A DNA stretch of 60,759 nucleotides from an uncultured Dehalococcoidaceae bacterium (GCA_964545815.1 CAZJGR010000002.1:1-60759), one strand, 5' to 3'. Positions 1,091 through 60,220 are shown, counted from the first letter of the stretch. Made by a program: numbers and translations. The notes: generated by a model from the sequence alone, not told the origin.

Positions 1091-1954
1091 CTACAGCAAC
1101 CTCACGGCCTCGGCCAGTTCAGAATCTACGACGTGGGTGTACAATTGAGTGGTGCTCAGGGAGTTGTGCCCAAGAAGGACCTGTACCACCCTGATGTTAG
1201 CTCCCCGTTGGAGTAGGCGGGTGGCAAAGGTATGCCTGAGCATGTGTGGAGAGAGCTTAAACCCGGCCTGTTCGCCCGCCTTTTGGACGACGTGCCCCAC
1301 GGCCCGCCTTTTCAGGCCGCCTCCCTGATACCCCTTTAGCAAAGGCTGATCGCCGTCCTTATAGGGGACGGATTGAAGGTAGAACAGGAGGGCCTCCTGT
1401 AAGGTGTCCTTGATAGGAACGGTCCGCTCCTTGTTCCCCTTGCCTCTGACTCGAATCTGCCCGCTCTCGAGGTCCAGAGAGCTTCTCTTCAGTCCCACGA
1501 CCTCGGACAGTCTGAGACCGGCAAAAAGCATGAGGTAGATGATCACCCTGTCGCGCCTCGACAGGGTGGCCCCGATCAGAGCCAGGACCTCCGACCCGGT
1601 CAGGACTCGGGGCAAGCGATACTGCGCCCCCCCTCTCCCGAGGGAAATCCCCTCCATCGGCGAGGATGCCATCCATCCATTGACTACAGCCCAAGAGTAG
1701 AAAGCCCTCAAAGCGGCCACGATCCGCCAAAGGCTGGCCTGCGCCAACCGTTGACCCTGGGATGTAATGAATTCCTCTATGTGCCGCGGCGTGGCCATCA
1801 GAAGCTCGCTGTGAGGCTCAGAGAAGATACGTGGCCGGACTCCCCTACTCGCCAGGAACCGCCAAAACCGCGTGACCTCGTAGAGATATGCCTTGACGGT
1901 TTGCGGACTATAGCGGGCCTTTAGATACAAACTCCATGCCTGTAGAGTTGGCAT
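1091..1954 (-). CDS. int: tyrosine recombinase / phage integrase (XerC/D-like)
   Basis: C-terminal HMLRHTFATRLL...LLGHNSLSTTQLYTHV (R..HxxR..Y catalytic signature). Start trimmed to ATG 1954 (MPTLQAW) behind GGAAAGGAGG. Confidence 0.93.
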   Translation of the reverse strand: MPTLQAWSLYLKARYSPQTVKAYLYEVTRFWRFLASRGVRPRIFSEPHSELLMATPRHIEEFITSQGQRLAQASLWRIVAALRAFYSWAVVNGWMASSPMEGISLGRGGAQYRLPRVLTGSEVLALIGATLSRRDRVIIYLMLFAGLRLSEVVGLKRSSLDLESGQIRVRGKGNKERTVPIKDTLQEALLFYLQSVPYKDGDQPLLKGYQGGGLKRRAVGHVVQKAGEQAGFKLSPHMLRHTFATRLLQRGANIRVVQVLLGHNSLSTTQLYTHVVDSELAEAVRLL

Positions 1955-2123
1955 CTTGAGTGACCTCCTTTCCACTGATTCTCCTATTCAGGTAACATGC
2001 GACGTGAGCCACCCCCTGGCCAGGGCGGGGGAACTGAACGTACCCGCTGCCCTTATAACACCCCTCCCCACAATAGATGCAGTTTCCCACGTGGGTGCCC
2101 TTGCCTTTGTTTTCATCGGCCAT
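1908..2123 (-). CDS. small Cys-rich protein (71 aa), possible Zn-binding recombination directionality factor / excisionase-like partner of the integrase
   Basis: ATG 2123 behind CCAGGAGG. CIYCGEGC...HVAC motif. Overlaps the integrase start by 47 nt. The function is a guess from position only. Confidence 0.45.
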   Translation of the reverse strand: MADENKGKGTHVGNCIYCGEGCYKGSGYVQFPRPGQGVAHVACYLNRRISGKEVTQDANSTGMEFVSKGPL

Positions 2124-15920: not shown

Positions 15921-15950
15921 GTACTATACCTCGTACTATACCTCGTACAC
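15921..15950. repeat. tandem 12-mer GTACTATACCTC x2.5 just upstream of the -35
   Basis: Units at 15921-15932, 15933-15944, and partial at 15945-15950. Confidence 0.9.
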
Positions 15951-16026
15951 TGCTTTTGCGAATAACGCAATTACAAATAACGTAAAGGCTGGCCACCTTG
16001 TAGCGCAATAAAACAGCCGCCCCTCG

Positions 16027-16200
16027 TAGGCAGAGCGTGACCTGCAGGACCTCGCTGTAACCGGCGCGACTTGCTCGACTTTGCGCCAACCGGCGTGGCT
16101 TGCTCGACTTTGAGCGGCAGAGCGCCTGACTGTAGTCAAAGGTAGGCAGAGCGCCGGACTGCGCGCGCCTGGATGCAGAGCGCCGGACTGAGGTAGGCAG
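16027..16200. repeat. block of ~29-bp periodic direct repeats (iteron/centromere-like)
   Basis: AACCGGCG(C/T)G(A/G)CTTGCTCGACTTTG at 16059 and 16088. GCAGAGCGCC(T/G)GACTG at 16118, 16147 and 16175, with a degenerate copy at 16031. The region is noncoding. Confidence 0.8.
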
Positions 16201-16310
16201 GCTGCATTTGGTTAGATTGCGCACTTTTAAGCCATAAGCCGTGCACGGCGCCTGCTTATCGCCAACATACCCCCCCCCACTTTACCGTGCTAGACTTTTG
16301 CCCCTATCCC

Positions 16311-16344: not shown

Positions 16345-16380
16345 ATAAAAAAGAGAGCGCAGATGACCGCGCCCTCTTCA
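16345..16380 (-). terminator. rho-independent terminator of the second leftward operon
   Basis: Minus strand reads GAAGAGGGCGC-ggtcatct-GCGCTCTCTT followed by TTTTTATT. Confidence 0.75.
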
Positions 16381-16398: not shown

Positions 16399-16782
16399 TT
16401 ATAAAAGGCCGTCTAGACCATCTCCGGCCTGGCCCAAGACCTCCCACTCTCGGACCTTGCGCCAGTTGGAGGGAGGAGTATTCGAGAACTCGCCCTGATC
16501 TTGTGGGGCAGGGAGCCCCAGCGCCTCGCGGCCTACAATGACCACCGGCGGTGGGGGAGGTGCACCCTGCCGGCCGCCGGGAGCTACAGACCATTGCAGA
16601 CTGCGCAGAAGCACCAGGCCCACGATGGCCAGCGCCGAGATAGCACCCAGACAAGCCCCAGCGCCGCCGATGGCGACGCCTACGACTACCCCTCGCGCTT
16701 GCGTGTCCAGTGAGAACCAGACTCCGACCGGGATGGCCAGACCAGCCGCGGTGATCAGAACACCTGCCAGAAAGCGATTCAT
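16399..16782 (-). CDS. small membrane protein (127 aa, 2-3 predicted TM segments, Pro-rich linker)
   Basis: Trimmed to ATG 16782 (MNRFLAGVLITAAGL) behind AAAGGGGGA. Confidence 0.6.
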   Translation of the reverse strand: MNRFLAGVLITAAGLAIPVGVWFSLDTQARGVVVGVAIGGAGACLGAISALAIVGLVLLRSLQWSVAPGGRQGAPPPPPVVIVGREALGLPAPQDQGEFSNTPPSNWRKVREWEVLGQAGDGLDGLL

Positions 16783-16891
16783 TCCACTAATCCCCCTTTC
16801 ATTGCCAGAACAGCCAGAATGGAATTGACTGCACCGTCTTCGATTGCGACTTTGACAGAGAAACGATATGCCGGCATCATTCCATTCCATT

Positions 16892-17323
16892 CTACCCGAT
16901 GCGCCTAACTTCCAAATCATCGGCCCGACTGCGAAACCTGGCAGACAGCAACCTCGCTATCGCCAGACGGTGGCAATCATGCGATAGGCGTTCAGAACAG
17001 AGCAAGACGACCGGAAGCCTCGACGTGCGGACTTTGGCCTCAAGAGCCTTCAACCCAAACTCGATGTCTTCAAACCGCCCCTTTTCATTCCGGCTCAGTT
17101 GAGGCAGCCAGATATAGTCGTGCCCGCGTTGTTTAGTGGCCCACTCTAACCCAGGACCATACAGCCGGCACCAACTGCGCCGACTGGCCCGAACATCTAT
17201 AACTAACCACCTGGCGTGAAAATCTTCCAGCCGCTGGAAAAGCTTTTCGGGCATCTGATTGCCATACCCGATCAGCCAAAGCTCGTACTGAGCCACCACG
17301 ACTTCTCCTTTACGCTTGCCCAT
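16892..17323 (-). CDS. DUF488-like protein
   Basis: Trimmed to ATG 17323. LIGYGN...WLVIDVRASRRS...IWLPQL...LLCSERLSHDCHRLAIARLL resembles DUF488. Confidence 0.6.
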   Translation of the reverse strand: MGKRKGEVVVAQYELWLIGYGNQMPEKLFQRLEDFHARWLVIDVRASRRSWCRLYGPGLEWATKQRGHDYIWLPQLSRNEKGRFEDIEFGLKALEAKVRTSRLPVVLLCSERLSHDCHRLAIARLLSARFRSRADDLEVRRIG

Positions 17324-17343
17324 CGTGAACCCTGCCCCTTGAC

Positions 17344-17409
17344 TCTGGACTTGCCTGCCTGTGGCAGACCTACCTAACAGGTAGGCAGACAGGTCAAGAC
17401 AAGTCCAGA
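17344..17409. repeat. full nested element (TCTGGACTT / AAGTCCAGA around GCCTGCCTG.. and CCTACCT-AAC-AGGTAGG)
   Basis: All three palindrome tiers are present. Overlaps the stop codon of the FtsK-like gene. Confidence 0.9.
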
Positions 17410-18704
17410 CTTTCATCAACTAACTGCTTTTTGACTGTTGCGATCGCGGCCGCAACACGAGGAGGATTGACGTCTGTCCCATACTGTTCGATATGCCACC
17501 TGCGGACCAACCGCTGCGAGCATTCTCCCGACGTCTGTAACTGCGCCTTGATAAAGGCTAACATCTCACTTTCAGCGATTGCACCAGGCCGACCAGGCCC
17601 GGGCATCGCCAAGACCTCCCGCAGTTCCTTTTCATCGCCCGAACCTGACCCCGGCTCCTTAACCGCGTGACATTCGACCCGCAAGCCGGCCTGCCTGCGC
17701 CCTGTCTGCCTGACAGGCAGGAGGCAGGCAAGATCGCTTTCGTGAACCAGAGCAGCCTTGAAGCGTGTTTTCTGCCCCTGGTGGACGACTAGCATGTCGC
17801 CCAACCCCAGGAGCCTTTCAGCGTTCGAACCCGGCACGCCTAGAGCGATAGAAGCTTCTGCCGCCGAGTTGACTGCCCCGCTGATCCGGACCGGAAAGTT
17901 AGCTCGCATAAGACCGGCCACAACATCGGCGGATGGCCTCTGCGTCGCAATAATGCAATGTATGCCGGCCTCACGCCCACGCTGCACCAGGCGAGCCAGA
18001 CCCACCTCGACAGGATGACCTCCTACCATGACGAGGTCCGCCACCTCGTCCACGAACAGATACAACGCAGGACGATTGAACCCCTGCCTATCCCGCCGCT
18101 CCAGAGTTTGCAGCAAATGTGTCAGAAGCCCTGTAGCCGACTGCGCATCCTTGCAGCAATCCTCCACCCCCCGCAAACTTGACAGCCCGGCCAACTTGCG
18201 GCCCTTGGGGTCCACGAGGAGAAACCTGGCGTCCTGGACTTTTGACCACAAGACCAGAGAAACCAGCATGGTACACAGAAGCTCTGTCTTCCCTGAGCCT
18301 GTCATGCCGCTTACCAAAGCGTGCGCTGCCGTTGGACTGGACATACACAACAAAAGAGGTACACCTCGATTTGACAGGCCCAGGAGCGCGCTTTGCCCAG
18401 GAGGAGCGCTTTTGAACCGGGTGATTACCTGGTTGAAGGGCACCGAAACCCCATCACTACGGGGGACCTCGATGATCACCCCATCGGGCTGGCTGTTGAC
18501 AATAATTTTAGGGACTTGAAGGGACAACGCAATCTCACGATTAAGACCTTCCAGCTCTCGAACCCGCCGCCCTCGGCCCAACTGAACACGATAGCAAACC
18601 ACCTGCGGCAAGATCTCCCCACCCAGGATGCGAACTGCTATCCCGTAGTCTTTGAGAACCTCTTCGAGTCGGTTTGACTGTAGCTCCAAAAGCCTTCTAT
18701 CCAT
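17394..18704 (-). CDS. soluble FtsK/SpoIIIE/TraB-like dsDNA translocase
   Basis: GMTGSGKTE Walker A, LFVDEVADL Walker B, IIATQRPSADVV, LLGLGDMLV. No TM segment. A ~100-aa C-terminal domain follows an in-frame palindromic element. Confidence 0.9.
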   Translation of the reverse strand: MDRRLLELQSNRLEEVLKDYGIAVRILGGEILPQVVCYRVQLGRGRRVRELEGLNREIALSLQVPKIIVNSQPDGVIIEVPRSDGVSVPFNQVITRFKSAPPGQSALLGLSNRGVPLLLCMSSPTAAHALVSGMTGSGKTELLCTMLVSLVLWSKVQDARFLLVDPKGRKLAGLSSLRGVEDCCKDAQSATGLLTHLLQTLERRDRQGFNRPALYLFVDEVADLVMVGGHPVEVGLARLVQRGREAGIHCIIATQRPSADVVAGLMRANFPVRISGAVNSAAEASIALGVPGSNAERLLGLGDMLVVHQGQKTRFKAALVHESDLACLLPVRQTGRRQAGLRVECHAVKEPGSGSGDEKELREVLAMPGPGRPGAIAESEMLAFIKAQLQTSGECSQRLVRRWHIEQYGTDVNPPRVAAAIATVKKQLVDESLDLS

Positions 18705-18705
18705 C

Positions 18706-19509
18706 TTACCTTACCCCCTCCAGAGCCTTGATGTCCCACAAGACGACTACCCCGTCTCCATTGCGACGGATAGCGCCCATGGCCGCCAACTTGCCAAGAT
18801 GCTGGCCGACCGCTTGACGGGAAACCCGCAACCCCTGGGCAACCTGGGCCTGCGACGCTTGCGGATTGCCGGCAAAAGCTTGCAGGACCGCTTTCGTACC
18901 TTGCCCCAACCTTGCGTATTGATTGCCGGCCTCTTGCCTGGCAATTGCCGCGCCTTGCTCTTTGCTTGCTTCTTGCTTGACAAGCGCTTGCCTGGCAAGC
19001 TCTTCCTCTTGCGCTGATCTTTCAGCTACCTTGACGGCCGCTTGCAGGGCAATTGACTTCTCTTGCCTCTCCCTTGCCTTTTCCTTGCGCTCCGCTTGCT
19101 TGTCAAGTTCGTACTTGCTGACGACTTGTGGCATGGCCAGACCAACCGCACAGGCCACCAGGAGCAGTGGGAACAGGAAACCGAGGAGAAGGTTGCCCCC
19201 AAACTCGTACCTATTGGCAATGACCGAAACCGAAAGAGATGGAACGGCCAGCAGGATGAACGCACCCAGGACGGCCCGATAGAAGCGCCGATCTTGCCGG
19301 GCAAGGTTAGACTCACTCAGCTTTTTGCCGACCTCCACGATAGACCAGGCGACCCACGCCGTATAAAGCTCGACCAGGGCAGCCGCAACCCAAAAGAACG
19401 AAGTGTCGTCTTTGGCCATCGCGAAGAAGAAGTTGGCCAGAGCATTGACCGAACAACCGGCAAACGCAACGATGCCGGCCACAGGCAGGACGTCCTTGTT
19501 AAGCCTCAT
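18706..19509 (-). CDS. membrane-anchored coiled-coil protein with C-terminal winged HTH (DUF2637-like architecture)
   Basis: Trimmed to ATG 19509 behind AAGGGGAGGGG. About 4 N-terminal TM segments, an E/K/Q-rich coiled coil, then QAQVAQGLRVSRQAVGQHLGKLAAMGAI. Confidence 0.7.
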   Translation of the reverse strand: MRLNKDVLPVAGIVAFAGCSVNALANFFFAMAKDDTSFFWVAAALVELYTAWVAWSIVEVGKKLSESNLARQDRRFYRAVLGAFILLAVPSLSVSVIANRYEFGGNLLLGFLFPLLLVACAVGLAMPQVVSKYELDKQAERKEKARERQEKSIALQAAVKVAERSAQEEELARQALVKQEASKEQGAAIARQEAGNQYARLGQGTKAVLQAFAGNPQASQAQVAQGLRVSRQAVGQHLGKLAAMGAIRRNGDGVVVLWDIKALEGVR

Positions 19510-19807
19510 CCACCCCTCCCCTTGTTCCGGCCTCTGGACTTGTCTTGACAAGCTCAGAGATAGTCAACGGCCTGACCAGATAGTGACCGGGTGCAACGTA
19601 CTTACACGCATGAACAGCCAGACCCTCCGGCGACTGAAACCCATCAGCAGCCGCGGGCGATAACCAGACCATCGAGAGCCAGCGTCCAATCTTTCTTTTG
19701 AATTGCACACACAGGTCGGCGATCACTTGCTCGATCTGCCGGCCGCTGTTGTCCCGATAGAGTACGCTCGAGGGCAGACCACTAGCTATCCTGCCTCCGC
19801 TTTTCAA
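19499..19807 (-). CDS. doubtful ORF (102 aa)
   Basis: TTG start and no clear SD. Its 3' end runs through the hairpin at 19532-19559 and the next gene's SD. Confidence 0.25.
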   Translation of the reverse strand: MKSGGRIASGLPSSVLYRDNSGRQIEQVIADLCVQFKRKIGRWLSMVWLSPAAADGFQSPEGLAVHACKYVAPGHYLVRPLTISELVKTSPEAGTRGGVDEA

Positions 19808-20018
19808 AAGTACACCCCCTCCAAAAGTACACCCAGGTATACCTGTTTTGCCCTAACCAGTAGGGCCTTTTGCTCACTTCCCTACTAGATATAAGCGGCC
19901 GCAAATGCCGGCGTACCGTTTGCACCGAACATCCAACAGCAAAGGCAATATTCTTCGATGTGATGGGCCAGTTGTGCCGCTGGAGAAAACTGGCTATCTC
20001 AGCCTGATAACTTTTCAT
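19782..20018 (-). CDS. winged-HTH protein (78 aa)
   Basis: ITSKNIAFAVGCSVQTVRRHLRPL. ATG behind GGAGGTG. ATGA overlap with the upstream gene. Confidence 0.7.
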   Translation of the reverse strand: MKSYQAEIASFLQRHNWPITSKNIAFAVGCSVQTVRRHLRPLISSREVSKRPYWLGQNRYTWVYFWRGCTFEKRRQDS

Positions 20019-20308
20019 CTCACACCTCCAGCCCTGTCTGACGCAGGCAGAAGGAACAGGACCTGAGAGGCCTCAATCCTATCCCCCGTATCTCTGACGT
20101 AAGGAATTTGAAGGGTAGGCGCAAACGATACCCCAAAGGCAAGGGCCACGACATACAGCGCCCGTTGATAACCCGCCTCGTAGGCTGATAGCAGGTCGGC
20201 CTTTTGTACGCCTGCCTGCCGGGCAGCGTCCATCGAGGACGCACTGGCCTCACCGGCAGCAGTCAGGGCGCGCTCAATATCCTCCAGAAAATAGAAGTCA
20301 AGGCCCAT
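20015..20308 (-). CDS. hypothetical protein (97 aa)
   Basis: Tightly coupled to its neighbours. Confidence 0.55.
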   Translation of the reverse strand: MGLDFYFLEDIERALTAAGEASASSMDAARQAGVQKADLLSAYEAGYQRALYVVALAFGVSFAPTLQIPYVRDTGDRIEASQVLFLLPASDRAGGVR

Positions 20309-20309
20309 C

Positions 20310-20525
20310 TTACCGCCTCTTTGCTCCTATCCATTGATAGATAGCCTGCCCCCTCTGTCCATACCAGGCAGGAAGGTTTTTAACTACCCCCGCCCGGACG
20401 AGCCTGCGAAGGCAGTGATAGACCGTTGACTTTGAACAGCCCACCTCCAGAGCGATGGTTTCCGCCGTCCAAAACCCGTCGTGCCTCTTGAGAAACGCAA
20501 CGACATCCATTAAACGGCTTCTCAT
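20310..20525 (-). CDS. winged-HTH protein (71 aa), paralog of 19782..20018
   Basis: Trimmed to ATG 20525 behind GAGGAGG. WTAETIALEVGCSKSTVYHCLRRL. Confidence 0.7.
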   Translation of the reverse strand: MRSRLMDVVAFLKRHDGFWTAETIALEVGCSKSTVYHCLRRLVRAGVVKNLPAWYGQRGQAIYQWIGAKRR

Positions 20526-20576
20526 CAGACTACCTCCTCGTCGGCCAACGCAATTGTCAGCCAACAGTGCCCCTTA

Positions 20577-20654: not shown

Positions 20655-21266
20655 TTACACCACAAGCCGCGTACCCACTACTTGCTCTGGCTCGCCCGGA
20701 GCTACCGGGACCAGAGCGGAGAGGACCAGGGCCTCTTGTAGCGACGCCAGGATAAACAGATACTCGGCATCGTTGACGTGAGTGATGTCATCATCATGCA
20801 ACCGAACCATGCCGGCATAGGCCCGGCGCAGCAACCGGTTGGCTTGCGTAAATTCCTGGTGGCCTTTGTGAAGCTCCCGGGCCTTAAACGAGATACCGGC
20901 CCTGTAGACATCCATAATGTTAGCGACCTCCTGGCTTACGACCGCCACGGGGTGCAGGACGTCAATGAACTGATCCCACGCGTGAATGGTAAACCGGGTC
21001 AAAACGAACCGACCTTGCTGCGCCCGCCAATCCACCGTAACCTGCCCCACATTTGTCTCAGCGAGCATTGAGATTGTAGACACCAGATACCGGCCGATTA
21101 GGTCCTTATTGACGCCTGGCATAGAGTGACCGTTAGCGTCCAATTGGACGGGCGGCCGATACAACGTAACATTGCGGCCGGCAACGAGACCGGCTTCCTG
21201 GTGGGCCTCGCGCCCATCATAGATTGTTACATTCGTGTCCCGTTTCTTTCTAAACAAACCGAACAT
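20655..21266 (-). CDS. hypothetical protein (203 aa)
   Basis: ATG behind GAAGGGAGG. Confidence 0.65.
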   Translation of the reverse strand: MFGLFRKKRDTNVTIYDGREAHQEAGLVAGRNVTLYRPPVQLDANGHSMPGVNKDLIGRYLVSTISMLAETNVGQVTVDWRAQQGRFVLTRFTIHAWDQFIDVLHPVAVVSQEVANIMDVYRAGISFKARELHKGHQEFTQANRLLRRAYAGMVRLHDDDITHVNDAEYLFILASLQEALVLSALVPVAPGEPEQVVGTRLVV

Positions 21267-21344: not shown

Positions 21345-21656
21345 TCACCCCATACTCACCTCCTTGCCCTCATCGGCTAACATGATTGTAAGACCACATA
21401 AGCCGCCCTCAGCGATGCGACCCACGATCTTAACGGGCAGAAACTTTTGAGACCCGAACCGAACATGGAACGGGATAACCAGGCCCGGGTCGAGCATGTC
21501 CTGTTTGAGATAGTCACGAATAGCCCGCCTGGCCTGGCGCAACACAACCCTGACCCGCTTTCCTAACCCTGGCCCTTGCAGGACCTCGACCAGCCTGGCC
21601 GAGAACTTGACCGGATAATTGAACCGCAACCCCTGAGCCGCCTTTGTGACGTCCAT
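21345..21656 (-). CDS. hypothetical protein (103 aa)
   Basis: ATG 21656 shares its A with the TAA stop of the upstream membrane-protein gene (TAATG coupling). Confidence 0.55.
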   Translation of the reverse strand: MDVTKAAQGLRFNYPVKFSARLVEVLQGPGLGKRVRVVLRQARRAIRDYLKQDMLDPGLVIPFHVRFGSQKFLPVKIVGRIAEGGLCGLTIMLADEGKEVSMG

Positions 21657-22498
21657 TAAGTCTTTTCCCCTACCAGACAGCCTGCCGTGGCCAGCACCGG
21701 CCATAGACTGAAAATACCGAAGTAAGGGCTGATCAGAAGCCCCAAGAGTAAGCATAGCCAGACCTCCCTGCGGAAGCACTGGACTTTGCTTGCTAACCAC
21801 AGAACAGGGACAAGCCAGAGAAGCGAGAACGGCCCCAGGAGCCTCCACAAGCTGGCGTTCCAACCCATGTTCATACTGCCGGCAACCTGCAACCCCTGGA
21901 CAAACGGGACGATCCACCACTGCCCTGTTAGTAGATAGTCGGCAAGAGTAGTCACTACCCCCATCATGAAGGGGACGAGCAATGCGCGACGCATCCCGGG
22001 CCAGAAAGCTACCATAAGGAAAAACATCAGGCAGGGGACCCAGGCCAGCTGCGGCTTGAATAGCATTAAGGCCATCCCCGAACCTACCCAGTCCCATCGG
22101 GAGGGCACATACTCCCATCCCAATAAGGCCAGCGTTAGACCGGCCAGAAATACCGCATCGAAAAGGTGCCCGTAGACCAATGCCGGCAAGAAGACCGGGC
22201 TAAGAAGCACAACCCAGGCAGGAGTCCGCCAGACCTTACATGCCCACAGGCAGACCAGGATGTCAATCAGCCAGACCACGATCAGCGCCACCTCCCGAGG
22301 CAGGAGCCCCAGGAGCCGCAAGACCCAGGTGCACGGTACGGGGTACCAGTACCGCGTCACCGAGTACGGTTGCAGAGTCCTCCCGGCCGGCCAGAGGTGC
22401 ACCGAGAAATCGTCCCTGCCCGTTGGCAAGACCATGATCACCATGGCCACCAGCAACCCCAGGGCGATACCCCACTCGATTGCCTTGCTCATGCTCAT
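21656..22498 (-). CDS. polytopic membrane protein (~9-10 TM), possibly GT-C/DUF2029-like glycosyltransferase
   Basis: Hydrophobic segments run throughout. The family call is a weak impression only. Confidence 0.7.
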   Translation of the reverse strand: MSMSKAIEWGIALGLLVAMVIMVLPTGRDDFSVHLWPAGRTLQPYSVTRYWYPVPCTWVLRLLGLLPREVALIVVWLIDILVCLWACKVWRTPAWVVLLSPVFLPALVYGHLFDAVFLAGLTLALLGWEYVPSRWDWVGSGMALMLFKPQLAWVPCLMFFLMVAFWPGMRRALLVPFMMGVVTTLADYLLTGQWWIVPFVQGLQVAGSMNMGWNASLWRLLGPFSLLWLVPVLWLASKVQCFRREVWLCLLLGLLISPYFGIFSLWPVLATAGCLVGEKT

Positions 22499-22824
22499 AA
22501 GGCCCTCCAGATTACCCTCGGTGGGTCCACGTCGTCCCTAAACAAAGCCATACTTTCATCCGGGCAGGGCAGGGGCTTGTCTTCGCCTACACGAGGCAGA
22601 GCAGACGGCATCCGATACAGACGGGCCCCTTGCCATTCCTCAACCTTCTCCATGTTTTCGACCCCCAGGACGACCTTTTTGACCGCCGCATTGAAGCCGA
22701 GAGCGTCGCATACATCGGCCAGGACGAGCAATACCGGCGCCTCTGTTTCTGCCAGGTTTGCGCCGTCTTTTTCCAGGTCCTCCCGTAGACGGCGTAACCC
22801 CTTAAGCATACCCAAATAGTCCAT
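22495..22824 (-). CDS. hypothetical protein (109 aa)
   Basis: ATG behind AAGGGGG. Confidence 0.6.
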   Translation of the reverse strand: MDYLGMLKGLRRLREDLEKDGANLAETEAPVLLVLADVCDALGFNAAVKKVVLGVENMEKVEEWQGARLYRMPSALPRVGEDKPLPCPDESMALFRDDVDPPRVIWRAL

Positions 22825-22862: not shown

Positions 22863-23114
22863 TTACCGGGCTTGAGGAGGGGCTTCCTTGACCGCCTCTT
22901 TCTCACTGGTCAGTCGGGCTTCGTATTCGTTCATCGCTTTGGTCAGGACCCCAATGTCCTGCCGGCCCAACCACTCATCCACAAGCCCCCGAACGATCTC
23001 CGCAACAGATAGTCCTCGCGCCAGGCAGACCAGCTTTAGCAAGCGATGGGTCTTTACAGAGACCGGGATAACAAGCACTGATTGAGATGACCTCTTGACT
23101 CTTTGCTTTGGCAT
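22863..23114 (-). CDS. ribbon-helix-helix (CopG/Arc-like) regulator
   Basis: SVLVIPVSVKTHRLLKLVCLARGLSVAEIVRGLVDEWL. First gene downstream of promoter 23148-23176. Confidence 0.75.
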   Translation of the reverse strand: MPKQRVKRSSQSVLVIPVSVKTHRLLKLVCLARGLSVAEIVRGLVDEWLGRQDIGVLTKAMNEYEARLTSEKEAVKEAPPQAR

Positions 23115-23134: not shown

Positions 23135-23147
23135 AGTACTATGTACT
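23135..23147. promoter_or_regulatory. operator-like palindrome AGTAC-TAT-GTACT over the leftward transcription start
   Basis: Exact 5-bp arms. Also reads as tandem GTACTAT GTACTAT (23136-23149). Confidence 0.6.
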
Positions 23148-23176
23148 ATTGTATCACAAACCACTGTTCTTGTCAA
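23148..23176 (-). promoter_or_regulatory. sigma70-type promoter P-L2 (TTGACA-17-TGaTACAAT)
   Basis: On the minus strand, -35 is at 23176-23171 and -10 at 23153-23148. 17-nt spacer with TGn. Confidence 0.75.
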
Positions 23177-23277: not shown

Positions 23278-23470
23278 AGGATGCAAGGGATGGTGTACCT
23301 TGCCCGCCGTCCCTCGTACCCCCCTTGGATTGGGGCGGCTCTGCGTGTCGGACGGGCCTGCACCGGAGGCCGCCCCTGGCTAACCCGTATGCGCAAGGCT
23401 GGTCCGAGCCCCACCCGCCCCTTCGTCTCTCTTTGGCCAGGGCCGGCCTTGCGCAGTGACAGAGGAAAGG

Positions 23471-24394
23471 ATGACAATACTCAAGCATGTCCCGTTAAAC
23501 AGTATGCAGGACCACCCCCTGAACGCTCATGCCGTTTCAGAGAAGGACCGAAAGAAGATTGCTAACAACATCCGGCGTACGGGGAAATATCCGCCCTTGA
23601 TTGTCAGAGAACTGACAGAGTTGTCCGAGTACTGGCCCGGCGCACCAGGACACTACCAGATACTGGACGGCCACCAGCGCCGTTTGATTTTTGAAGACCT
23701 GGTGGCTGAGGGCCTGACTCAGTTCGAGCAGGTGGCCGTTGACGACTGGTCACCCCTGACCGATGACGAGGCCCTGATCGCACTGGCTACCCTTAACACC
23801 TGGGGCGACAATATCCCACGTAGACGCGCCGAACTCCTCCATGCCATTCTCAAGACCGTTGAACTGCAAGAAGCCGCTAACGTCCTCCCCGAAGATGTCC
23901 ATGCCATCACCGATGCCGTTAAACTCCTCAAACAGCCCCTGGCCGATATACAACGCCTGATTGACGAAGCCCAACGCCCTGACGAGATAGCCATCAGTTT
24001 TGTACTGAGCGCATCCCAAAAATCGGCCCTGGCCAAGTTTACGGCGGCCATACAACTTTTTGCCTCCTACTACGGGGCAGACATGGTCAAGGTTGAAGTA
24101 AAGGAAGGCGGAGAACATGGCCGCGTGGTTGTCTTGACTTTTAACCTGGTCAATGCCGCTCACACGCTGGTGGAGGAGGCCATCCGGCGCGCCTCGGAAG
24201 AACTACCCCCAGGAGGTAAGAACCGGCGAGGACAGGCCCTGGAGGTCATAGCCGCACAGTACCTGGCTACCGCATTGAAATGGAAAGACCAGGTCGACAT
24301 AGAACCGGTAGAAACGGAACGCACCGCCCCACCTCCTGCCAGGCGCAAGCGAACCCGCAAACCGGTGCCTGAAATCGCCATCGCCGCATCCTGA
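23471..24394 (+). CDS. ParB-like nuclease-domain protein
   Basis: YQILDGHQRR (ParB/Srx DGHHR-type motif). Trimmed to ATG 23471 behind GAGG. Confidence 0.8.
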   Translation: MTILKHVPLNSMQDHPLNAHAVSEKDRKKIANNIRRTGKYPPLIVRELTELSEYWPGAPGHYQILDGHQRRLIFEDLVAEGLTQFEQVAVDDWSPLTDDEALIALATLNTWGDNIPRRRAELLHAILKTVELQEAANVLPEDVHAITDAVKLLKQPLADIQRLIDEAQRPDEIAISFVLSASQKSALAKFTAAIQLFASYYGADMVKVEVKEGGEHGRVVVLTFNLVNAAHTLVEEAIRRASEELPPGGKNRRGQALEVIAAQYLATALKWKDQVDIEPVETERTAPPPARRKRTRKPVPEIAIAAS

Positions 24395-59838: not shown

Positions 59839-60156
59839 ATGCCGATTAAGGACCCTGACCTTTACCCGCCCGACTGGTGGCGAATCAGCCTGCAGGAGCG
59901 TGTGAACAGCGGCTGGCGCTGCCGGTTTTGCAGGGCCGAACAGGGAGAACCGCACCCGGTCACCGGCTCCAGAGTAGTCCTGACCGTGGCTCACCTGGAC
60001 CACAACCCGCAAAACAACGACCCGGACAACCTGGCGGCTTTGTGCCAAAAGTGTCATCTGGCCTACGATCAGCAGGAACACCTACACCACGCCGCTCAGA
60101 CCAGGCGAAGAAGGAAAGTGGAAGCCGGGCAACTAGAGCTATTAGAGGCCCCATAG
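59839..60156 (+). CDS. HNH endonuclease (phage packaging-associated type)
   Basis: CRFC...VLTVAHLDHNPQNNDPDNLAALCQKCHLAYD. Trimmed to ATG 59839. Confidence 0.85.
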   Translation: MPIKDPDLYPPDWWRISLQERVNSGWRCRFCRAEQGEPHPVTGSRVVLTVAHLDHNPQNNDPDNLAALCQKCHLAYDQQEHLHHAAQTRRRRKVEAGQLELLEAP

Positions 60157-60220
60157 CTCAAATGGGAGAGCAACGGTCTCCAAAACCGTGAGGTGAGGGT
60201 TCGAGGCCCTCTGTGGGCCG
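60147..60220 (+). tRNA. tRNA-Trp (anticodon CCA)
   Basis: Manual fold gives: D arm GCTC/GAGC; anticodon arm ACGGT-CTCCAAA-ACCGT; variable loop GAGGT; T arm GAGGG-TTCGAGG-CCCTC; G discriminator. The acceptor stem GGCCCCA/TG(T)GGGCC needs one bulged base. Overall close to bacterial tRNA-Trp. Confidence 0.7.

Follow-up and report, generated by a model that had tools for sequence, protein, structure and literature searches.

A phage-borne split FtsK DNA translocase common to Chloroflexota chromosomes and phages, with a possible role in positioning phage genomes

The 60,759-nt contig CAZJGR010000002.1 (positions 1-60759, GCA_964545815.1) of an uncultured Dehalococcoidaceae bacterium, in the following called the window, carries a leftward operon around an FtsK-like ATPase, which a preliminary description had read as a plasmid-like module inside a tailed phage. 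Our analysis suggests that the operon encodes a multi-part "split FtsK" translocase for double-stranded DNA (dsDNA) of a kind typical of Chloroflexota, and that it might act early in positioning phage genomes at the membrane or septum or in segregating them. We put the probability of this reading as a whole at roughly 45%. Sequence comparisons support well the identity as a split FtsK translocase with dedicated partners, which is common to Chloroflexota chromosomes and their phages. A role in docking, positioning, or segregating phage genomes after infection or induction we infer from the gene context, from the domains and partners of the motor, and from published precedents. All coordinates are given in Table 1.

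The ATPase is a true FtsK motor with alpha and beta domains but with neither a membrane nor a gamma domain. It matches the Pfam families FtsK_SpoIIIE (PF01580, 5.5e-24) and FtsK_alpha (PF17854, 1.2e-9), both above the cut-off, it contains no hydrophobic segment, and its best sequence match in the PDB is the motor of Pseudomonas FtsK (2iuu, 5e-38). An AlphaFold2 (AF2) model built with 29 homologs (pLDDT 87) predicts an alpha domain (residues 1-95), a beta domain (100-325), a disordered linker, and a C-terminal three-helix bundle resembling a helix-turn-helix (HTH) domain (378-433). The catalytic motifs are kept, i.e., Walker A (GMTGSGKT), Walker B (DE 219-220), and TQRP. A Foldseek search with the model returned the FtsK motors 6t8g and 6t8b first (target-normalised TM-score 0.74-0.76, root-mean-square deviation about 3 Å, 31% identity), and TcpA, EccC, and HerA ranked far below them. 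Cellular FtsK, SpoIIIE, and SftA are thus closest in sequence and fold, and share the alpha and beta motor domains, Walker A/B, and the TQRP arginine region with the window protein. The lack of an intrinsic membrane domain is shared with SftA. In contrast to canonical FtsK and SpoIIIE, it lacks the N-terminal membrane domain and the gamma winged HTH (wHTH), in place of which it has the three-helix domain: Ftsk_gamma matched neither the window protein nor any of 17 C-terminal domains, and the modelled bundle has no wing. Further differences to cellular FtsK are that the membrane contact is apparently delegated to separate proteins with two and four transmembrane (TM) segments, and that the motor is encoded in a phage early operon. 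The TM-less FtsK/SpoIIIE ATPase of the preliminary description is therefore confirmed, and it belongs to neither a packaging nor a replication family. A packaging ATPase is ruled out by the FtsK-motor fold and by a separate gene for a GpA-type large terminase. A replication helicase found no support, although no gene for a replication initiator, helicase, primase, or polymerase is recognisable in the 60,759-nt window.

Comparison of homologous regions retrieved from metagenome, IMG/VR, and genome records (labelled L0xx) indicates that the conserved unit is a cassette of four genes, which had been overlooked before. They encode FtsK, the 97-residue protein p97, p87, and a hairpin protein with two TM segments (2-TM protein). 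We found the cassette again in about 20 phage loci and in Chloroflexota chromosomes, and both p97 and p87 occur in phage as well as in chromosomal cassettes. The p97 family, recognised by the motif MGLDIWF.EDI...YR.GY.AAL..ALAFG, has at least 313 relatives, all of which are labelled "hypothetical" and none of which has a Pfam domain. Homologs of p87 were found in the chromosomal cassette of L008 and in L013, L019, L076, and L077. The 2-TM family also lacks a Pfam domain and comprises 1657 cluster representatives at E ≤ 1e-3; 707 remain at E ≤ 1e-10. Its hairpin is followed by a proline-rich linker and then by the best-conserved part, a C-terminal tail of the form R[ED][FW]x[VI][IL]G[ED]ED, in which R...G is invariant. 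FtsK is paired with a 2-TM protein in phages (L003, L005, L007, L010, L011, L015, and L017-L022) and in chromosomal loci (L008, L009, L038, L039, L072, L074-L076, L079, L080, and L082). In L015 and L017-L022, the 2-TM homolog has 110-160 residues, and its gene follows FtsK immediately or almost immediately. In two low-GC IMG/VR phages (L018, 11451-13835; L020, 10714-13507) the pair is followed by a nucleotide-metabolism and replication block, with look-alikes, by N-terminal sequence, of a ThyX-like thymidylate synthase, a thymidylate kinase, and a DnaQ-like exonuclease. Of 400 sampled Chloroflexota genomes, 7 contained full-length copies in a profile search with the 2-TM family, and the respective regions again had the order FtsK - p97 - 2TM, with or without p87 or DUF6504. 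A complete relative, a 56.8-kb record with terminal repeats that holds L019, contains FtsK, the 2-TM partner, and p87. A search of the whole record revealed no tyrosine recombinase, and therefore the cassette is not tied to integration.

The presence of FtsK/SpoIIIE genes in Chloroflexus-associated temperate viruses has been noted before, at the annotation level only (PMC8597652). FtsK/SpoIIIE-like genes of phages are widely annotated without an assigned role. In one large group, the motor appears to be a piece of a conserved multi-protein set, which consists of a putative membrane dock (more than 1600 cluster representatives), two small soluble partners, and, in part of the elements, a wHTH protein tethered to the membrane. 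Cassettes linked to lexA in chromosomes have the set as well, and in sister phages it comes coupled with actin-like genes. It offers concrete candidate partners and cis sites for phage FtsK function, and it defines several unannotated protein families.

The relationship of phage and chromosomal cassettes was studied with the motor sequences. Over its full length, the window FtsK has 46-51% identity to about 25 metagenomic proteins, and IMG/VR contains more distant phage motors with 33-39% identity. The second tier of homologs are TM-less proteins of 330-385 residues encoded in Anaerolineae chromosomes. In a maximum-likelihood tree the window FtsK lies inside a clade of close phage copies (support 100/100), phage and chromosomal cassette motors interleave, and the housekeeping FtsK of the bin sits on a long separate branch. 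In 3 of about 11 chromosomal loci examined, the cassette trails lexA, either directly or with one gene between. L008 (8001-10186) has the order LexA - FtsK - p97 - 2TM - DUF6504 - p87, in L009 (6036-9447) two LexA copies lie right before the FtsK cassette, and in L079 (4971-8270) LexA and p155, a Cys-rich protein of 155 residues, precede it; L008 and L009 have housekeeping flanks. Behind LexA, the three loci continue with FtsK, p97, and 2TM, then in some cases DUF6504, and finally p87. All four families are common to the chromosomal cassettes (L008, L009, L074-L076, and L079) and the window. In contrast to them, the window contains no lexA gene, and the LexA box GAAC-N4-GTTC has 0 matches in its 60.8 kb. 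In addition, the order in the window is interrupted by wHTH genes, and the C-terminal HTH of the motor, a DUF488 protein, and a 4-TM protein with a wHTH domain (4TM-wHTH protein) are extras.

The link to lexA, the gene of the DNA-damage repressor, raises the question whether the cassette might act on host DNA. A phage could supply the host with its DNA-damage-type split FtsK to clear or move the host chromosome, e.g., from septa, and thus keep the cell productive. The three lexA-linked cassettes and the interleaving of the motors would fit such a role, but the chromosomal copies lack the C-terminal HTH of the phage clade, which suggests that its DNA target is specific to phages, and the LexA box is missing from the window, so that we regard a host-directed role as unlikely. 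The link to lexA is also reminiscent of the archaeal Ced system (CedA, CedA1, CedA2, and CedB), which combines an FtsK/HerA-superfamily ATPase with small membrane partners and is linked to DNA damage. The resemblance is one of kind and not of family, as the window FtsK reaches 20.9 bits with the CedB model, compared to a cut-off of 700. The cassette could be a bacterial machine of this kind, which transfers dsDNA across membranes and is induced by DNA damage in Chloroflexota, and phages could have captured it and added a DNA-recognition domain for a virion-free passage of their genomes from cell to cell; we consider this very improbable.

The C-terminal HTH marks the close phage clade with the motif GRP...EEM..FA...G.CSQR.LR.WH...G.D.NPPRA. 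Comparison with Pfam gave weak homeodomain-like hints, and a single-protein scan led to two contigs of Chloroflexota metagenome-assembled genomes. Neither the chromosomal FtsK copies nor 400 genomes of the class to which the window belongs contain the domain, and 400 genomes of the phylum yielded one borderline match (E 8.5e-4). A search for skewed words similar to the FtsK orienting polar sequences (KOPS) returned top words that mirror the coding-strand bias of the window alone.

The five close relatives L003, L005, L007, L010, and L011 (contigs of up to 66 kb) represent the same phage type with the same layout. One arm carries a ParB-like gene, a D12 methylase, and the terminase; the ParB-like gene is kept in all close relatives, upstream of the methylase. 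The diverging operon encodes a ParG-like ribbon-helix-helix (RHH) protein, a ParM-like actin (ALP_N and MreB-like_C domains), small proteins, FtsK, DUF488, a p97 homolog, and a 2-TM homolog. Both the actin-like protein (ALP) and the ParG-like RHH protein were found in these five relatives and additionally in L015, and in L022 a ParB gene lies behind the cassette. Compared to a type II ParMRC partition system, the window has the weakly ParG-like RHH protein alone, without ParM/ALP.

The gene directly upstream of FtsK in the window encodes the 4TM-wHTH protein. Its AF2 model (pLDDT 89) shows four TM helices, the last of which extends as a helix of about 70 residues, followed by a wHTH domain (203-256) that matches MarR_2 (3.5e-6) and HTH_24 (5.5e-5), in agreement with the protein with 4 TM segments, a coiled coil, and a wHTH described earlier. 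The family has about 27 members with 38-58% identity. The TM domain is strongly conserved and contains the conserved polar residues E47, T50, W52, QDRRF 72-76, N99, and E102. A fold search of the model against viral structures gave wHTH-level matches alone (E > 0.04), and PDB sequence searches with the TM domain, p97, and DUF488 gave no match. The positive-inside rule places the wHTH domain, and also the tail of the 2-TM protein, probably in the cytoplasm. A different phage-like element, L013 (450-12763), with a TerL-type terminase, a serine recombinase, and a TIR-domain protein, has the same order as the window, i.e., p87 - 4TM-wHTH - a 139-aa gene - a very divergent FtsK - a 2-TM-like gene, and the closest match to the window p87 is encoded there, immediately before the 4TM-wHTH homolog. 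In L012, a 4TM-wHTH homolog is followed by a p97 gene one gene further downstream, and in L021 an analogous protein with TM segments, stalk, and wHTH is encoded 0.7 kb upstream of FtsK. The two small wHTH proteins A and B further upstream are true paralogs, as had been proposed (40% identity over 68 residues, E 4e-14). The five close relatives have no counterparts of the two small wHTH genes, of the 203-aa gene, or of the 4TM-wHTH gene.

A role in segregation or positioning is favoured because the operon context is rich in RHH, ALP (in the relatives), and ParB-like neighbours, because the motor has a DNA-binding domain specific to the phage clade, because membrane-tethered DNA-binding partners recur beside the motor, and because precedents have been published. 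It is known that p16.7 of phage phi29 binds DNA. It is a putative membrane anchor of the phage and is linked to MreB, and the early gene pair AlpAC of the Corynebacterium prophage CGP3 transports phage DNA to the membrane and is required for replication (PMC4446434). As in these systems, early phage genes would take phage DNA to the membrane; the relatives of the window have an actin-like gene in the operon, and the 4TM-wHTH protein follows the logic of p16.7, a membrane anchor with DNA binding. The likeness seen is one of logic rather than of sequence, neither known system has an FtsK motor, and the window has no actin gene.

Under this reading, the cytoplasmic tail of the 2-TM protein would dock the hexameric FtsK motor at the membrane, and the 4TM-wHTH protein would tie DNA to the membrane in a p16.7-like manner. 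The C-terminal HTH and the wHTH proteins would select the DNA, possibly at an array of 29-bp repeats past the terminator. The early promoter with its operator-like motif would make the complex active after infection or induction. The complex might reel replicating phage genomes to a membrane site and hold them there, and it might clear them from closing septa, so that genomes are kept and partitioned. In the five relatives, the actin filament encoded in the same operon might do the long-range pushing, as AlpAC does for CGP3, and in the window the membrane tether and the wHTH genes would stand in place of the actin gene.

Several points weigh against this reading. The ALP gene, which prompted the idea of segregation, is missing from the window and from the whole bin (tblastn). 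The window contains a tyrosine recombinase, and thus an episomal state is not required. The lexA linkage of the chromosomal cassette could point to another role. The DUF488 protein is left unexplained, and it and the FtsK domain match defence components, as described below. The wHTH genes without homologs in the relatives may be simple regulators. Lastly, the repeat array, which is located about 150 bp past the terminator, has no clear counterpart at the matching spot in close relatives. Its unit GCAGAGCGCC[G/T]GACTG occurs at 16117, 16146, and 16175, together with partial copies, and nowhere else in the window.

The preliminary description had likened the module to the DNA-transfer modules of actinomycete integrative and conjugative elements (AICEs). 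In Streptomyces, TraB works with membrane Spd proteins (PMC4447253). By analogy with TraB, Spd, and the clt site, the motor and the membrane proteins could export the phage genome as naked dsDNA to neighbour cells. The types of parts are indeed the same, namely an FtsK-family dsDNA motor, small membrane proteins including a DNA-binding one, a repeat array beside the motor operon, and an integrase elsewhere. Moreover, the cassette relatives mostly come from Anaerolineae and Caldilineaceae records, and many members of these groups are filamentous. However, similarity at the TraB level is lacking: in NCBIfam, the window FtsK scores 114 bits with the FtsK model and 29.3 bits with plasmid_TraB (NF041214), compared to a cut-off of 800, and the latter score is also below that with the EccC model. 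Of the AICE hallmark genes, Rep, Spd/DUF2637, Nudix, and Kor/GntR-type genes were not found in the operon or the left arm, DUF2637 has no Pfam match, and the tyrosine recombinase is the only one found. The carriers of the cassette are tailed phages, including the complete genome with terminal repeats, and the order Dehalococcoidales is not mycelial. Conjugation-like spread is therefore very unlikely. An AICE origin is not supported, because the conserved partners form a set specific to Chloroflexota, which is also found beside chromosomal lexA, and the small wHTH genes behind the plasmid-like impression are specific to the window among the compared loci. What remains of the earlier comparison is a membrane-associated FtsK-family translocase with DNA-binding partners in a layout similar to TraB/Spd/clt; the analogy is fair as regards the type of machine, but membership fails.

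The motor could also serve superinfection exclusion or defence, if it were docked at the membrane to seize incoming foreign DNA and to expel or block it. PADLOC matched the ATPase domain to the FtsK-type domains of the defence proteins SspH (101 bits) and mad8 (74 bits), the partners are located in the membrane, and PHROGs places phage FtsK-like genes in the class morons and host takeover. The DUF488 protein contributes a weak match to the candidate defence component PDC-M45C. Its presence, already proposed, was corroborated by a score of 28.3 bits for PF04343 (gathering cut-off 22.2) in the C-terminal part alone; a C-x-E...CHR motif in this part is invariant in six homologs. The gene probably starts at 17323 rather than at 17419, and DUF488 adjoins or closely trails FtsK in the close phage family only. 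The matches to SspH and mad8 are, however, to the generic ATPase domain alone, and no other Ssp, MADS, or PDC component was matched among the ten operon proteins scanned, which also sets the operon apart from the Ssp, MADS, and SIR2-HerA systems. In addition, the cassette is also found behind lexA among housekeeping genes, and in several phages it occupies an early-region position beside replication-type genes, which is not the typical position of a moron. Exclusion or defence thus appears improbable.

The co-directional genes of the module, each behind a ribosome-binding site (RBS) of the GGAGG/AGGGG type, are bracketed by a promoter and an intrinsic terminator. The heptamer GTACTAT occurs in six copies in the window, a number that was reached in 2 of 100 shuffles, and four of the six are paired at two leftward promoters (23136/23143 and, within 15921-15945, 15921/15933). 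The pairs look like a shared operator for some regulator, possibly the RHH protein or a wHTH protein. The second leftward operon encodes an AAA+ ATPase, RusA, an exonuclease, a sigma-like factor, and the integrase. Because the pairs are common to both promoters, the FtsK operon is probably co-regulated with this operon, and it would therefore be part of an early gene set and not of a lysogen-maintenance set. Co-transcription with the RHH gene, which is the first of the operon, thus stands as described earlier; the expression in the lysogen that had been deduced from it is without support, as GTACTAT points to early lytic co-regulation.

Table 1. Features of the window discussed in the text (RHH, ribbon-helix-helix; wHTH, winged helix-turn-helix; TM, transmembrane; RBS, ribosome-binding site)
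Feature	Position	Strand	Remarks
Tyrosine recombinase	1091-1975		294 aa; SAM-like N-domain typical of XerC/D
29-bp-phased repeats	16026..16203		candidate cis site
Intrinsic terminator	16350..16379	-	13-bp stem; closes operon
2-TM hairpin protein	16399..16782	-	127 aa; last gene of operon; proposed membrane dock for FtsK
DUF488 protein	16892..17323	-	
TM-less FtsK	17394..18704	-	
4TM-wHTH membrane protein	18706..19509	-	4 TM, long-helix stalk, wHTH
p87-family gene	19499..19807	-	about 100 aa; TTG start, good RBS; absent from earlier gene list
Small wHTH protein B	19782..20018	-	paralog of A
p97	20015..20308	-	97 aa; cassette component
Small wHTH protein A	20310..20564	-	HTH_IclR 1e-7; alternative start 20525
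203-aa protein	20655..21266	-	no homolog or family match
Probable further 103-aa gene	21345-21656	-	MDVTKAAQGLRF...; fills 389-bp gap between 280-aa membrane gene and 203-aa gene
280-aa polytopic membrane protein	21656..22498	-	about 7 TM; no family match; common only to L007, same operon position
109-aa protein	22495..22824	-	homologs in L003 and L005, in L005 directly upstream of FtsK
RHH protein	22863..23114	-	weakly ParG-like; first gene of operon; kept at operon head in 5 relatives
Tandem GTACTAT pair	23136..23149		overlaps -10 element; candidate operator common to promoter at 15935-15962
Sigma-70-like promoter	23148..23176	-	TTGACA-17-TACAAT plus TG, 11/12 matches; heads operon
ParB-like gene	23456-24394	+	phrog_723 1.3e-8; TIGR00180 1.5e-4; first of rightward operon diverging from FtsK operon
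GpA-type large terminase	26717-28474		gene separate from FtsK
tRNA-Trp	60147-60219		

Early expression would also suit an aid to genome entry, in which a membrane motor made early pulls in the rest of the phage genome in a two-step DNA transfer. About 3 kb separate the operon from the terminase genes, and if the packaging site adjoined the latter, as in lambda-type phages, the operon would be near an end of the virion DNA and would enter early. The parts, a membrane-docked dsDNA motor and DNA-binding membrane proteins, would be appropriate. However, the role is impossible for the chromosomal cassettes, and to our knowledge there is no precedent for an FtsK-type entry motor in tailed phages. 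We hold this function to be hardly probable.

It is known that FtsK activates XerD (PMC3130261). By analogy with FtsK and XerCD at dif, the motor could activate the Xer-like tyrosine recombinase of the phage to resolve dimers or catenanes of its genome. The recombinase is short, its N-terminal domain is of the XerC/D type, and homologs of it are encoded near FtsK in L021, L022, and L026. Nevertheless, multimer resolution is highly unlikely, as the gamma domain, which is the XerD-activating part of FtsK, is absent, the complete relative has the cassette without a tyrosine recombinase, and the recombinase gene of the window is 15 kb away in another operon.

The window is the entire contig C2 of a bin with 118 contigs and 1.64 Mb. 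As it contains the terminase, a long open reading frame of tape-measure size, the recombinase, and tRNA-Trp, it is a tailed-phage contig, and no host flanks are visible. The only matches to DNA metabolism in the window are a PolB-exo-like exonuclease, RusA, another exonuclease-like protein, an AAA+ ATPase, and DUF3150, and the operon has no similarity to known phages at the DNA level. The tetranucleotide composition of C2 has a correlation of 0.80 to the rest of the bin, compared to 0.93-0.99 for other large contigs, and its tRNA-Trp and that of the bin (contig C98) share only 80% identity over 51 nt. The assignment of the phage to a host is thus uncertain, and it may be foreign to the organism of the bin. 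Within the operon, the probable 103-aa gene has no homologs among the retrieved loci, and its ATG overlaps the stop codon of the gene upstream.

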